Source: Octopus vulgaris (Eukaryota). From it: a DNA stretch of 64,000 nt. The translations under genes were made by a program, and so were the position numbers. The stretch spans positions 47,864,001-47,928,000 of the forward strand of contig OX597835.1 in assembly GCA_951406725.2 (NCBI GenBank). The letters are read 5' to 3'. The notes under the pieces are model-generated. The model was given only the letters and a program-made list of their open reading frames with translations. It did no database searches and was not told the origin of the DNA. Shown here piece after piece: positions 26,611 through 60,716 of the stretch (positions within the stretch are counted from its first letter, which is position 1; every line of letters starts with the position of its first letter).

Positions 26611-27313
26611 CCGATAACGACGACGAAGATGATGATGATGGTGATGATGATGATGATGATGATGATGCCGATGACGACAACGATGATGATGGTGATGTGG
26701 GATTTCCAGAGTCAACGAAATAACGTCTAAGTCTAGATTCTAAACTCTAAACAATCTCCAGATTTGCTAACAACCGCAGCTAAATCACCCGGCAGAAATA
26801 AATATGGTGAACTTTTCGTTAAAATGAATAAGAAAGACAGACGGACTCAATAGACAGTGTACTTCTAGATACACTATGCCAAAAACAAAAAAAATTCAGG
26901 AAATATTCAAGAAAACAAAAGTTGATGGTCAAACAGAACAGCTTCCAAGCCCACAATCATCACTATCACCACCACTAACACCACTACCATCACACCACCA
27001 ATACCACCACGAGTAGCAGCAGCAGCAGCAGCACCAGCAGCACCACCACCACCACCACCGCAACCACCACAACTAATATAACAATCGCCTTCAACACCAC
27101 TAACACCACCACCACCACCACCACCACCACCACCACCACCACCACCAGAATAGTAACATCAATAATAACAATAATAACGATGGTCACCATGCCAACCATC
27201 ACCATCACTATCAGCTACACCACTGCCACCGCAACTACAACAACCACAACTACCATTTCCACTGTAACCATCGCCCTCGCAAAAAGCACCATATCATCAC
27301 CACTTCAACTACC

Positions 27314-28690
27314 ACTCGCCTACTACCACCAGTACCACCAGACGCTTACTACCACCAGTACCACCACACGCTTACTACCACTTGTACCACTACACGCCTA
27401 CTACAACCAGTACCACCACACGCTTACTACCACTTGTACCACTACACGCCTACTACCACCAGTACCACCACACGCTTACTACCACCAGTACCACCACACG
27501 CTTACTACCACTTGTACCACTACACGCCTACTACAACCAGTACCACCACACGCTTACTACCACTTGTACCACTACACGCCTACTACCACCAGTACCACCA
27601 CACGCTTACTACCACTTGTACCACTACACGCCTACTACAACCAGTACCACCACACGCTTACTACCACTTGTACCACTACACGCCTACTACAACCAGTACC
27701 ACCACACGCTTACTACCACTTGTACCACTACACGCCTACTACAACCAGTACCACTACACACCTACTACCACTTGTACCACCACTCGCCTACTACCACCAG
27801 TACCACCACACGCTTACTACCACTTGTACCACTACACGCCTACTACAACCAGTACCACCACACGCTTACTACCACTTGTACCACCACTCGCCTACTACCA
27901 CCAGTACCACCACACGCTTACTACCACTTGTACCACCACTCGCCTACTACCACCAGTACCACCACACGCTTACTACCACTTGTACCACCATTCGCTTACT
28001 ACCACCAGTACCACCACACGCTTACTACCACTTGTACCACCACACGCTTACTACCACTTGTACCACCATTCGCTTACTACCACCAGTACCACCACACGCT
28101 TACTACCACTTGTACCACCATTCGCTTACTACCACCAGTACCACCACACGCTTACTACCACTTGTACCACCATTCGCTTACTACAACCAGTACCACCACA
28201 CGCTTACTACCACTTGTACCACCACACGCCTACTACCACCAGTACCACCACACGCTTACTACCACTTGTACCACCATTCGCTTACTACCACCAGTACCAC
28301 CACACGCTTACTACCACTTGTACCACTACACGCCTACTACAACCAGTACCACCACACGCTTACTACCACCAGTACAACCACACGCTTACTACCACTTGTA
28401 ACACTACACGCCTACTACAACCAGTACCACCACACGCTTACTACCACTTGTACCACCACTCGCATACTACCACCAGTACCACCACACGCTTACTACCACT
28501 TGTACCACCACTCGCGTACTACAACCAGTACCACCACACGCTTACTACCACTTGTACCACCACTCGCGTACTACCACCAGTACCACCACACGCTTACTAC
28601 CACTTCAACCACCACTCGCCTACTATCACCAGTACCACCACACGCTTACTACCACTTGTACCACCACACGCCTACTACAACCAGTACCGC
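27314..28690 (+). repeat. Minisatellite, 26-bp unit alternating as a 52-bp higher-order dimer
   Basis: Units gtaccaccacacgcttactaccactt / gtaccactacacgcctactacaacca, about 50 copies; open in all three plus-strand frames. Confidence 0.95.
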
Positions 28691-29154
28691 CACCTACAAC
28701 AACAACAACAACAACCGTAGCAACAACAATAACAGCAACAACAAACGAATGTCCACGAAAGCGAAGCAAGCTGTCTTCAAAACATGGCGCTCTAGTAGCT
28801 ACTTGCAACCGGAACCGAAGCATTTTAACGGTCACGTGTCTTTGTTCATGCTATAAAAGGCAATTATAAGTCTGTCACAGTGTTAGCGAGCACGCATGCG
28901 TATGTCGTCGCGTGGCAGGGTCACGTGCCTCCGTATAATGTCTACACACACCGACGAATAAACGTGCATAAAGCTTGTGTAACTCACACCGTTTATAATA
29001 CATTTGATGTGCCCTTGGACACACTTGAAATGCATTCTGCATCTTAAGGACATACGAATATAGAGCTACGAACGCGCTTCTGTACGTACGTATGGATGCA
29101 CGCAATGAATCTATGTATGTATGTGTGTATGTGTACGTGCATCAGCGGGTCCGT

Positions 29155-34432: not shown

Positions 34433-34883
34433 CATTATCATCATTGTTCGACCGTGGTCGAGACAATGGAATTTACCATGCTACGCCAGACTTCACGGTC
34501 CATCATGGCATTACGGAGGTCTTGTTGTTGGATGCCTGTATCCCGGTAGATTACATCAGGGTAGGAGAGTGTGCGCCCTCTGGTATTGCGAGTAGATGAC
34601 TTCCAGAGGAGAAGAGGAGAAATTACCTCTTTTTCAGCTCTACAACAATGTCCAGCAAACTGGACTCTCTTACCCTTCACAAGAGATGATACAGATGGCA
34701 GTTTCCCATATATTTGCATTTTAGTTGGATGGCGCCTCCACGAGAGATTTTGAGCTCTCATAAGGAGGCGAGTGTAGGTTCCATCCAACCGCCTCTCAAG
34801 CTTCTTTGATAACGTCCAGGTTTCTGAGCCATATAGTAGAATTGGTTCAACTGTGGCTTTGAAGATTTCAAGTTTGAAGTCTC
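34433..34883 (-). mobile_element. 5'-truncated RTE-type LINE, ORF2 C-terminus, with 13-bp TSD
   Basis: Open frame KLEIFKATVEPILLYGSETWTL...FAGHCCR...AMMDREVWRSMV; short (TGA)n tail; TSD tacacagacatat at 34420-34432 and 34884-34896. Confidence 0.9.
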
Positions 34884-35082
34884 TACACAGACATATAAAT
34901 ACATATACATAGATACAGACATACACACACACATGTAGTATGATTCGGGTAAAAACCTCGTAACATGCTTTTAAGAGCTCATTTATTTGCATCCTACATG
35001 TTATGCAAGAGAAGGGTATATTTCGGGCCTGGATACACATGTGGAACTTCTCTTTGCATAAGGTTAATACAGGGATAATATA

Positions 35083-35322
35083 TATTTCTTTACTACCCAC
35101 AAGGGGCTAAACACAGAGGGGACAAACAAGGACAGACAAACGGATTAAGTCGATTATATCGACCCCAGTGCGTAACTGGTACTTTATTTATCGACCCCGA
35201 AAGGATTAAAGGCAAAGTCGACATCGGAGGAATTTGAACTCAGAACGTAGTGGCAGACGAAATACGGCTACGCATTTCGCCCGGCGTGCTAACGTTTCTG
35301 CCAGCTCCCCCCACCCCACCTT
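35083..35322 (-). mobile_element. Full-length SINE B with 21-bp TSD
   Basis: TSD ggttaataca(g/a)ggataatata at 35062-35082 and 35323-35343. Confidence 0.9.
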
Positions 35323-37958: not shown

Positions 37959-38587
37959 ACCCATACTTTGCCATAAAAATTAGTTGATACTTCGAGAAAA
38001 CAGACATCACCTAAAATTGAGGCTTATCCCCGGTAGTAGGCCGTTTAAAGCACGTTCGCTGTATTCGGCTACCTGATGTCATCAACAGAGTGAATACCGC
38101 ACTCACTTTCTCTCATATATTACACACATACACACACATACATGCTCACAAATATATATATACAAACACACACACACACACACACACATGCAGACACGCA
38201 CACACAGACACACAGACACACACAAACACATATATATGTGTGTTTGTATGTATATATATGTATATAGGCGTTCAGGAGAGTATACTGGCACTGATGTAGC
38301 AATATTTGAAATATTGTCCAGGTAAACCTCGCTGAAGAAGACTAATCAAATGTACGATAAGAAACGTATTTGAAAAGTCCGAAACCTAGGCACTAGATTA
38401 TCCGATTCTGGGTTGTCCGTTTATCTAATGTTCTTCCGAGAGGTAAGACGAAGTTTTATTAGGTTCGCTGCCCTCGCAATGTATTTGCCAGTTTATATGC
38501 AGTGAAGCTTTACTATAGCGTCGTAACTTTATCGACAATTTCCAGTAAACATTAGTGCCTTGTTGTACCACTTCTCTATATTTGTGA

Positions 38588-38660
<73 letters not shown>

Positions 38661-38757
38661 AGTAACAATAAAGGGTGAAATTAATTAATTTGGAATAATT
38701 ATTAATTACACCAAGTAGATTTCGGCATGTAAAAGCCTCATTCGAAGAAAATTTAAG

Positions 38758-39248
38758 TAATACTAAGCAATTAAGGGTTTAGCAACGAATTGCCTCACCA
38801 CACACCGAATTTAGAAATAGCAGTCAAAGAGTTATAGCTATTCTTTCTACTAAAACATTGTCAGAGCGAGCCAAAACAATGTTTTGGCTCGCTCTGACAC
38901 TGAGTTGAGATAATGCCTTCTAGTATCTCAAAATTTAATATACAATTATTCATAATTGTAGTATCCTACGCTGATGAGAAAAGAAGTTTGGGTAAGGTAG
39001 AATTTTCTAATTCTTATGCTTTCCTAAAACTTGATTTCGAAACGTACGTCCGTAGGTGACTTAAAATTGTATGATAGATTGCCGTCATTTCATTCTCTCT
39101 TACCTGTCTGTGTTTGCCTTTCAAGTGCTGTGTTTTTACTGAGATCTCCCTTTTAGTAGAAAGAATAGCTATAACTCTTTGACTGCTATTTCTAAATTCG
39201 GTGTGTGGTGAGGCAATTCGTTGCTAAACCCTTAATTGCTTAGTATTA
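38758..39248. mobile_element. Fold-back element with 98-bp inverted arms enclosing a 41-nt hairpin and a hammerhead
   Basis: 38758-38855 is the reverse complement of 39151-39248; inner palindrome at 38859-38899; lies between (TA)n tracts. Confidence 0.85.
38965..39056 (+). ncRNA. Minimal type-I hammerhead ribozyme (best example in the window)
   Basis: cctacg-CTGATGA-gaaa...tttc-GAAA-cgtacg-TC-cgtagg; perfect 6-bp stem I, extended stem II, palindromic stem III acgtacgt, GUC cleavage site. Confidence 0.88.
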
Positions 39249-39591
39249 TTTATATATATATATATATATCAAGCGAAACACGCTTGAGTCTGCTAGTGAC
39301 AGCTGATGAACTGGGGATTTTTCCTTGTGTAGTATGTCCTGTACCTTGTTTTTCTGTTGTAAAAAATGTTTTTCCCGTTTTCGTTTCTCGTTGAGTTCCA
39401 CGTCTCTGTTTTTTTGTAAAAAATGGCTTTTCCGTTTTCGTTTTTCGTTGAGTTCTACGTCTGGTTGTGGTGTCCTGTACTCACGTATATATATTTATAT
39501 ATGCATGTATATATACATGTAGATGTAGGTACGTACATATATGTTTGTATGTATGCATATATTTTATTTATTACATTATATATATATATAC

Positions 39592-39632
<41 letters not shown>

Positions 39633-40104
39633 TGTGCGTGTGTGTGTATGTATGTATGTAAAAATTATTTCGACACAAACATTCATATATGTCTTTTAGT
39701 TTGGTTACCCTTCTTCATTGTATATCGCCATTCTCAATCATTTCCACTCATGGGTCCTTAGTTAATAGTTCTTACGTTATAGTTTGGAATGTAATGCAGT
39801 TGACATCTCTTCCAACTACTTCGAGTCAAAAGTAAAGAAATGAAGAGTAGCAAGAATACATTTCCTGTTATCGTGAAAACCATAATTGACCTGGGATTTG
39901 CACACATCCCATTCCCCGGTTTTTCTTTTTACTTCAAGAGCAAAAAATATTACGAAAACACAACGCAGAAGTGAAAACTAGATAAAACAAATATAACAAA
40001 AATAGGGAAACGGGAAAAACAAAATGGTGGCGAAGGCTAATAAACAGAAAGAAAATTGCAGAAATGAGACACAAAGAAAGGAACATGTATACACACACAC
40101 ACAA

Positions 40105-50291: not shown

Positions 50292-50840
50292 TACTTTGCC
50301 TTCGATCTTTTCGGGGTTGATAAAATAAGCCCCATTGAGCACTGAGGGTCGGCGTAATCGATTTAACCCTCCTCCAAATTGCTGGCCTTGTGCCAACATT
50401 TAAAATTAATATAAACAATAATTATATTAATTTTAAATGTTGGCACAAGACCAGCAATTTGCGGGAAGGGTTAAATCGATTACGTCGACTCTCAGTGTTC
50501 ACTGGGGCCTATTTTATCAACCCCGAAAGGATCAAAGGCAAAGTAGGCTTTGACGGCATTAGAACTCAGATATTGCAAGAAATGCCCCTAAGCATTTTGT
50601 TCGACGCGGTAACAATTCTGTCAGCTCGCTGCATTACTACAAACAATAATAATCCTTTCTACTAAATACAAATTTGTGGAGAGGGGACCCCAGTGTTTTA
50701 CTGGTACTTAATTAATCGACCCCGAAAAAATGAAAGGCAAAGTCGATCTCGACGGAATTTGAACTCAGAACTCAGCGACGGACGAAATACCGCTAAGCAT
50801 TTAGTCCAGCGTGATAACGATTCTGCCAGCTCGGCGCCTT
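50292..50840. mobile_element. Three diverged SINE B copies (one plus, two minus)
   Basis: Family B body at 50292-50405 (+), 50435-50630 (-) and 50650-50840 (-). Confidence 0.78.
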
Positions 50841-56949: not shown

Positions 56950-57013
56950 GTTTAAATATTTAACTTGGCGAGGTTTAAACAATGTATACAATGTTTAAAC
57001 GTGTATACATTAT

Positions 57014-57063
<50 letters not shown>

Positions 57064-58509
57064 ATAATGTATACACGCATACAGATATATCTAAAAAATG
57101 TCTGGTGTACAATAAATCAATATGATATAATTAAATGTAATACAACTATATAAATTTATAAGAAATATATATAAATTTTAAATAATAATTTAAAATTTAA
57201 AATCAGTAAAAATGAGTGAAAATTTAACCTCAGCAAAATTTAAATTTAAATTTCCAAAATAGTCGAAAGCTTTCTTAAAAGTCGAATGTAAAGTGTGGAG
57301 GTGAAATATGTACCCGCGTTGTAATACTAACAGATGTCTAATTATTAGGTGTAAAAGCCAAATTCAAATGTGGAAGTGAAAAAATTATGTCATTTCTTAC
57401 TTTCCCTCCATGACCTCTCAGTCTATTCAGTCCCGTTGCAAGTCTGCGTAGTTTGAAGCATAAGTGACAAACGAAATGTGTCTCTTACTGTGTGCTTCCA
57501 ACTGGTTAGGATTGCACACGTCGCCACTTTTCCAACACCATAGGACTTTCAATGGATACGACGACAAAAGAGACACGTATACATCATTGGTCTATCGTTA
57601 TAAAGGATTGAACAACATGAGTACCACTTTGTGAGTCTTTGTTATTAACATTTACTGACAGACCGAAGAAAACCGGTTAGTAATCACGTGAAGTCGAAAA
57701 CTTTACTTCCGGGTGTCCCTCTCCTAGTAGGATGCCTTTACAACAGTTAGGGGTCCCTTACAGTCGATAGTTTTGTGTCGCATCCTGATACCAACAAAGG
57801 AAGTTCTGCATCCCCGCGCTCATGTGGATTCACATCACACAGGCTAATTAACTCATAGCTGTGAACCTGACAGAACCGGGTCAGAGTAGATCTGGGAACA
57901 AAAGCGGTTAAGAAGTGGTTTCCCACTCCTCAGAACTCTGGAACTCCCGAGTCAGAGCCCCATTACCGGACACAGTTTAAAGTCCTACCCAACCACACAC
58001 ACACACATAACAAATGTTAGATTTAGAAAATGGAATATACCAGGGACTTTATTGCTCACAACGATTCTTGTGAACCATAAAGTTTCTTGTATATTCCATT
58101 TCCGTTTCTATCATTTGCTATGTACTCGACGAACCCTGAGAAATTCATGAGGAAGATCCAGCGACAATTGTGTAAATAATGTGGATGACATTAGGTAGCC
58201 AGAGGCAGTGAGGGTGCTTCACCAGCTAACTATACTAGGTACACACCAAGTGCTTAAATATTTACTTGTTTGTCGTGAAATGCTCGAAATATGGATTAGA
58301 AAAACAGCCGAGAACAGATGAAGGGTCGTTCTTTGTGTTGTTTGTCTTGTTTTCCATTTGTTTCTTTCGTTGCTCGCAAAAAAAGTTCATATTCCATGTC
58401 CTCGTATTTTTTGTTGTTTACGTTTTTTGACGTTCTGTGCTCATATGATGTAATTGATTGATCTTCGCTCATTAAAATTGCTGGCCTTGTCACTAAACCA
58501 GATGCCATT

Positions 58510-59674: not shown

Positions 59675-60716
<1,042 letters not shown>

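Follow-up and report, generated by a model that had tools for sequence, protein, structure and literature searches.

We identified an insertion with a predicted hammerhead ribozyme motif in a 64,000-nucleotide stretch of the Octopus vulgaris genome (the whole stretch analyzed, hereafter the window). With a probability of roughly 0.78, this element is a 5'-truncated, partly inverted insertion of a young non-LTR retrozyme with a 583-bp monomer, copied into a TA microsatellite by a Penelope-like reverse transcriptase (RT) and endonuclease. The single locus is ordinary; however, the family to which it belongs is a useful test bed, in which a retrozyme appears to be tied to Penelope machinery by its insertion marks and not by sequence kinship.

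The whole insert spans approximately 38660-39246 and is framed by a 15-bp direct repeat inside a TA run. The left copy of this target-site duplication (38645..38659, plus strand) lies in a (TA)n run interrupted by TTT and its edges are blurred by TA overlap with the element, and the right copy occupies 39247..39261 (plus strand). Monomer positions are given on a ruler, m, defined by one natural 583-bp monomer (locus L027, 918-1500), such that on the direct arm m is obtained by subtracting 38877 from the window position. On this ruler the insertion reads m274-472 inverted, then m3-25 inverted, then m1-371 direct. The inverted arm (38657..38855, minus strand) carries a long 3' end pointing outward and consists of an unpaired tail of approximately 101 bp (m372-472; 38657..38757, minus strand) followed by the left paired arm (m274-371 inverted; 38758..38855, minus strand). 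Next comes a short filler of inverted m3-25 (38856..38878, minus strand), where four A's at 38852-38855 are compatible with either side of the junction. The direct arm (38878..39248, plus strand) is a 5'-truncated monomer, m1-371, with a short 3' end. It contains a type I hammerhead motif (38965..39056, plus strand) and ends in the right paired arm (m274-371; 39151..39248, plus strand), which is part of a block conserved in sister families. The GC content of 38001-40000 is 33%.

An earlier reading made from the sequence alone had described a compact element at 38758..39248. Its features are real: the arms at 38758-38855 and 39151-39248 are 98 bp long and 100% complementary, and the inner palindrome at 38859..38899 has perfect 20-bp arms around a single central base (38879). 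However, the tail was overlooked, so the element starts approximately 100 bp further left, and it is not a fixed unit. The suggestion of a recent event agrees with the closest relatives of the window copy, which are 99.5% identical over 369 bp. The predicted fold of the 491-nt region is very stable (-251.9 kcal/mol, z of -23, with none of 100 shuffles equally good). The rod with the ribozyme in its loop, which that reading expected of a transcript, is a by-product of this insertion and not the mobile RNA. The window copy holds only one ribozyme motif, and release of a unit-length RNA from it is therefore impossible.

Searches covered a genome assembly of 2.8 Gb in 227 contigs. The element produced 149 matches among the 40 scored of 1,875 candidates. 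Genome-wide, a 25-mer from the arm has 1,067 exact matches, a ribozyme motif has 260, and a motif from the sequence that follows the ribozyme has 908; the reversed controls for all three motifs gave 0 exact matches. The 583-bp monomer recurs in tandem with periods of 583-594 bp, in arrays of two to six laps with a hammerhead in consecutive units. Its longest stop-to-stop frame is 69 codons, and the mapped loci contain no LTR pair. The window copy is a member of a young non-coding repeat family that often occurs in tandem, and the family fits the definition of a non-LTR retrozyme at the level of sequence. One proposal of the sequence-only reading, a non-autonomous ribozyme retroelement, thus holds for this non-coding hammerhead monomer, and its two alternatives, a Penelope pseudo-LTR or a distinct ribozyme retroelement, turn out to be one thing: a non-autonomous hammerhead repeat inserted in the Penelope way. 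Monomers inside an array differ at 0-8 of 573 positions. We rejected this near-identity as proof of a circular template because some arrays at separate loci are equally alike (1-3 differences). A multi-kilobase segment that includes one retrozyme insertion is a repeat in its own right, occurring three or four times (L203-L204).

Two sister families (L074-L102 and L323-L352) share with this one a common block, m278-479, as well as TA targets and the head-to-head layout, and carry different hammerheads. They have a period of approximately 562 bp, and the third family, with 636 exact motif matches, often has U at core position 3. The sharing of m278-479 suggests that this block is what the enzyme recognizes. 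A consensus fold of the common 3' block from ten sequences, one of which (L217) is poorly aligned, has 30 pairs, six with two-sided change, and receives no covariation bonus; it is only suggestive of a conserved structure. By eye, a common short motif is visible upstream of the ribozyme at m524-540 and at the equivalent sites of the sister families. In the third family it is followed by a TATA-like box, a possible internal promoter. Contigs of the family are present in sequencing runs of uncertain nature (RNA or DNA), and such contigs cannot reveal RNA ends or circles.

We mapped 106 insertion sites, all on two contigs. Sixty of them are all the distinct sites represented in the first 100 of the 1,067 arm matches as listed, and another 46 come from the first 100 of the 908 post-ribozyme matches as listed; L204 and the second copy in L203 were dropped as segmental duplicates. 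Fifty-six sites were scored as inverted, and removal of a false pairing of two separate elements (L217) left 55 of the 106, all of them head to head and none tail to tail. The 3' ends of copies fall into two groups, one short (approximately m369; m369-371) and one long (m459-484; approximately m472). Among the 55 inverted sites, 47 pair a short end with a long end, one pairs short with short, none pairs long with long, and in seven one end lies elsewhere. The 47 of 55 compare with an expectation of approximately 41% short-long pairs, calculated by hand from the 35:14 ratio of short to long ends at non-inverted sites. TA-type repeats follow 152 of the 155 short or long 3' ends. The fixed short and long ends, the head-to-head inversion, and the AT or microsatellite target together make up, as judged from the mapped sites, a Penelope-type insertion architecture. 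Arm lengths and junction positions, by comparison, vary by locus, and the perfect hairpin is private to the window insertion. The layout thus arises afresh with every insertion.

These observations bear on the view that the element is a distinct small one with fixed terminal inverted repeats (a MITE or fold-back element), or a rod-shaped ribozyme RNA moving as a 491-nt unit. Consistent with such an element, the 98-bp arms are perfect and the fold is very stable. Yet within the target duplication the insert continues for approximately 100 bp past the left arm, and each locus has its own arm lengths and junctions. The sequence-only reading had raised the question whether the arrangement of arm, hairpin, and ribozyme is a repeated unit; genome-wide, the hairpin pattern occurs at two places, and the second has a different junction and lacks the long arms. 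With no copies of the window layout, movement as such a unit is refuted, and we consider this explanation as a whole highly improbable.

An assembly or library artefact, such as a chimeric fold-back read, is equally improbable. Perfect palindromes can arise in sequencing. However, the target duplication surrounds the whole insert and the window copy obeys the family-wide pairing of a short with a long end. Moreover, an 84-nt contig of sequencing run X2, which may be the assembly's own sample, matches 38827-38910 with 0 differences across the hairpin centre, reaching 29 nt to the left of the arm junction.

In the mechanism that we favor, a Penelope-like enzyme would make a staggered cut in (TA)n, and each end of the cut target would prime DNA synthesis on the RNA of the retrozyme, one at a short site (m369-371) and the other at a long site (m462-479). 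The two cDNAs would stop at variable points and then be joined head to head. In the window copy, the long-site cDNA would have stopped at m274, while the short-site cDNA would have stopped near m2, snapped back over approximately 20 nt to give the hairpin, and then been linked to the long-site cDNA by an overlap of 4 nt. The 98-bp arms would correspond to the stretch copied by both. The template would probably be circular or multimeric RNA, and sometimes linear RNA cut by the ribozyme acting as a dimer. We infer that two cDNAs made from two target ends at two fixed sites are the simplest account of the window copy. According to the available text of PMC11167929, an Anolis Penelope protein cuts AT-rich DNA, extends both strands, has two internal RNA start sites, and is a predicted dimer. 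Portions of other papers report an inverted 5'-truncated copy with a tail at one end for Penelope-like elements (PMC8557442) and head-to-head palindromic junctions for Penelope elements (PMC3846280).

The arms could instead derive from one cDNA of the same family that folds back and copies itself, the second end being set by nuclease cutting and not by a second priming event. Self-priming of this kind has been proposed for rotifer Penelope in the available text of PMC3846280, and 18 of the 47 junctions lie within 30 nt of a palindrome, as opposed to 5.7 in shuffles, with none of 20,000 shuffles reaching so high a count. Such near-palindromic junctions fit single-cDNA fold-back as well as they fit twin priming, and a pure fold-back route may operate at those loci. 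Across 43 loci, moreover, the two arms of an insertion differ at 82 of 6,520 positions, and most arms are nearer in sequence to their partner than to other loci. Against this, 23 of the 47 short-end arms are more than 30 nt longer than the copyable part of the other arm, and at L174 and L211 the arms do not overlap at all. In the window copy each arm has sequence absent from its partner (m372-472 on the left and m26-273 on the right), which means that neither was copied from its partner; fold-back as a general explanation is quite unlikely. The sequence-only reading had offered, as one of two alternatives, template fold-back within a Penelope-type process as the source of the inverted layout. 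The Penelope-type origin is retained, and the 98-bp arms are better read as the inferred overlap of two separately made cDNAs. Snap-back accounts only for the 20-bp hairpin. A rare T at m5, found in two of 92 copies, is common to the filler and the direct arm, as expected for snap-back on the same strand. A similar snap-back hairpin is found at L025, at a different junction position.

In LINE-1 twin priming, two primers on opposite target strands produce an inverted, truncated insertion within one target duplication, and the octopus insertions share this outcome. However, LINE-1 arms do not overlap and derive from the poly(A) end and a variable internal site, whereas in the octopus family both starts are fixed and the arms usually overlap.

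The hammerhead motif in the window has the features that had been claimed for it. Stem I (38965-38970/39051-39056) is a perfect 6-bp helix, the core box is at 38971, the stem II region (38978-39038) is 61 nt long, GAAA is at 39039, and the GUC triplet ends at 39050 (m173), after which cleavage is predicted; the core is standard. Stem III has only two base pairs and is closed by a self-complementary (palindromic) loop. A single motif is best predicted to fold without stem III (-24.1 kcal/mol, as opposed to -20.9 kcal/mol when it is forced), and two motif copies are predicted to form an 8-bp helix through stem III and its loop. Hammerheads with a short stem III are described as acting as dimers in the available text of PMC4209133 and PMC7229834. 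Rfam gave no hammerhead among 14 matches for 38680-39470, nor among the 150 listed of the 314 matches for the window, but only microRNA-type chance matches.

Stems I-III are paired in 99.8% of 405 cells in a comparison of the window copy with 23 multi-copy variants. One two-sided compensatory pair is found in stem I and one in stem II, one of the two with changes in 8 of the 24 sequences and the other in 4 of the 24, and each is probably the result of one event. Core position 4 is C instead of U in 24 of 91 distinct variants, which form a large subfamily; C at this position should weaken cleavage. The usual contact between loops 1 and 2 seems doubtful given the long stem II. We also considered stem II as an intron because of splice-like motifs and dropped the idea, as subfamilies differ at the donor-like site. 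At 38328-38395, a different repeat immediately to the left of the TA run contains a second hammerhead-like motif, degenerate and with an altered cleavage triplet, and similar motifs are present in L067 and L089.

Hammerhead cleavage in vivo is possible, and the stem covariation and a modest cluster of 5' ends bear on it indirectly. Twelve arms, representing 11 loci, have their 5' end within m172-184, immediately beyond the predicted cut, as opposed to 4.2 expected; this interval was chosen after the first sample, and the second sample alone provides five loci. In raw counts, 14 of 138 passes stop at m172-184, one stops in the next 13 nt, and 124 of the 138 read through the cut site. Other 13-nt intervals (from m216 and from m266) are about equally enriched for 5' ends. 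At L120 (1334-1352), a copy starts exactly at m174 with a 6-nt snap-back. Published results, in the available text, include mutants of the PAc ribozyme that had no effect on insertion in vitro (PMC11167929) and eight of nine tested Xenopus retrozymes that gave no cleavage (10.64898/2026.07.22.740005).

The genome contains several young Penelope-like families with intact RT and GIY-YIG frames, which also end in TA runs and are candidate sources of the enzyme. One of these (L061-L068) is a very young TA-inserting family in which a distinct frame of up to 479 codons comes before the 781-codon RT and GIY-YIG frame, an arrangement of two frames that is unusual relative to elements described as having just one open reading frame (ORF). 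Three more young families (L263-L322 and L357-L386) have open frames of 727, approximately 1,312, and 784 codons, many of them in inverted pairs.

In a rival reading the monomer would serve as pseudo-LTR to some autonomous Penelope-like element, and the window copy would be a heavily truncated end fragment of that element. The architecture matches that of truncated Penelope ends in the available text of PMC3846280 and PMC8557442, and an autonomous family likewise shows an inverted pair (L315/L316) in which one end is short and the other long. Nevertheless, long monomer copies continue upstream into further monomers, for up to six laps, and not into ORFs, and no RT and GIY-YIG ORF was found between monomer pseudo-LTRs in the examined loci. 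The 3' ends of the 781-, 784-, 727-, and approximately 1,312-codon families bear no resemblance to the monomer. Among top-scored candidates, the ends and flanks of the sampled Penelope-like families show no homology to it, near neighbors sharing only TA runs; as only top candidates were scored, a rare parent could be missed. Four Penelope-like proteins compared with 250 overlapping loci matched 18 of them, 16 of which carry the monomer, and in 14 of these 16 the match is at least 81 bp away with a TA run between (at L202, other sequence lies between). The two exceptions are L010, where the monomer adjoins a decayed Penelope-like end, and L141 (1311-1635; L353), where the short 3' end of a retrozyme abuts a 5'-truncated ORF of the 784-codon family through a few TA units. 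The latter arrangement could represent co-integration or a nested insertion and, if co-integration, would be a lead to the partner. On balance a pseudo-LTR origin is unlikely, and a non-autonomous retrozyme remains our preferred reading. Homology between retrozymes and the pseudo-LTRs of autonomous Penelope-like elements is not required, as in the available text of 10.64898/2026.07.22.740005 it is found in 24 of 57 Xenopus families; that text also proposes non-LTR retrozymes as non-autonomous Penelope derivatives.

Metazoan non-LTR retrozymes, as described in the available portions of Cervera and de la Pena 2020 (PMC7229834) and Li, Clavereau and Pollet 2026 (10.64898/2026.07.22.740005), share many features with the octopus family: non-coding tandem monomers that each carry a type I hammerhead, a short stem III with a palindromic loop, low GC content, a target duplication of more than 4 bp (15 bp at the window locus), and Penelope-like elements in the same genome. 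The octopus monomer of 583-594 bp compares with 150-450 bp in the first of these papers and 51-972 bp in the second. Unlike those described there, the octopus family has a 61-nt stem II region and short, dispersed arrays framed by Penelope-type ends. It also has no sister pseudo-LTR among the Penelope-like families sampled, and is known here from sequence alone. The form of the arrays points to ready-made products of reverse transcription, as opposed to arrays that expand locally through unequal crossover, a route considered in the available text of the second paper.

Endonuclease-positive Penelope-like elements (Penelope/Poseidon, Neptune, and Naiad), in the available text of PMC8557442, PMC3846280, and PMC11167929, resemble the octopus copies in 5' truncation, partial tandems, an inverted 5'-truncated head-to-head copy, junction palindromes, a one-sided tail, two 3' end sites, and AT or microsatellite targets. 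In contrast, the octopus family has no RT or GIY-YIG frame, its repeating unit is a whole non-coding monomer, and its tail is approximately 100 nt rather than the 30-40 bp described. The hammerheads of Penelope pseudo-LTRs, as far as given in the available text of Cervera and de la Pena 2014 (PMC4209133), are likewise of type I with a G-C pair closing stem II and a palindromic loop III suited to dimer cleavage, and occur in opposite-strand pairs a few hundred base pairs apart. The 6-bp stem I of the octopus family corresponds to the canonical class of that paper. The octopus motif differs in lacking an extra base before stem II and in a stem II that greatly exceeds the 7-8 bp given there.

A broader proposal can be made only tentatively, and we regard it as somewhat doubtful. 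The insertions would document the Penelope mechanism at work on a retrozyme. A two-site enzyme would prime from each end of the target on one circular or multimeric RNA, using two fixed positions separated by 100 nt, deposit ready-made tandem arrays, and sometimes run off an RNA end made by the hammerhead, with at least three retrozymes sharing the priming region while their ribozymes diverge. If true, run-off at such ends would be evidence for ribozyme cutting in the germ line. The near-strict pairing of short and long ends quantifies a feature for which the available text of the Penelope papers (PMC8557442, PMC3846280, PMC11167929) gives a qualitative description only, and it constrains the formation of inverted pseudo-LTRs, which that text calls unresolved. 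The 583-nt monomer with its two mapped end sites would also be a small substrate for studies of priming and cleavage in vitro. Our literature search, in which subscription journals were poorly covered and preprint supplements lay outside the scope, returned no description of this family or of such a pairing rule for a retrozyme. An annotation of octopus repeats (PMC13282606) lists active Penelope-like families, and the word "ribozyme" is absent from its main text.

The rest of the window is microsatellite-rich non-coding DNA, and microsatellites dominate the output of a repeat finder. A 52-bp minisatellite occupies 27299-28693 (26.8 copies, 93% matches). Other hairpin-forming inverted repeats lie at 50359-50478 and 56999-57078, with sub-threshold microRNA matches. 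Frames at 34441-35106 and 60005-60421 resemble what we take to be fragments of LINE reverse transcriptases.
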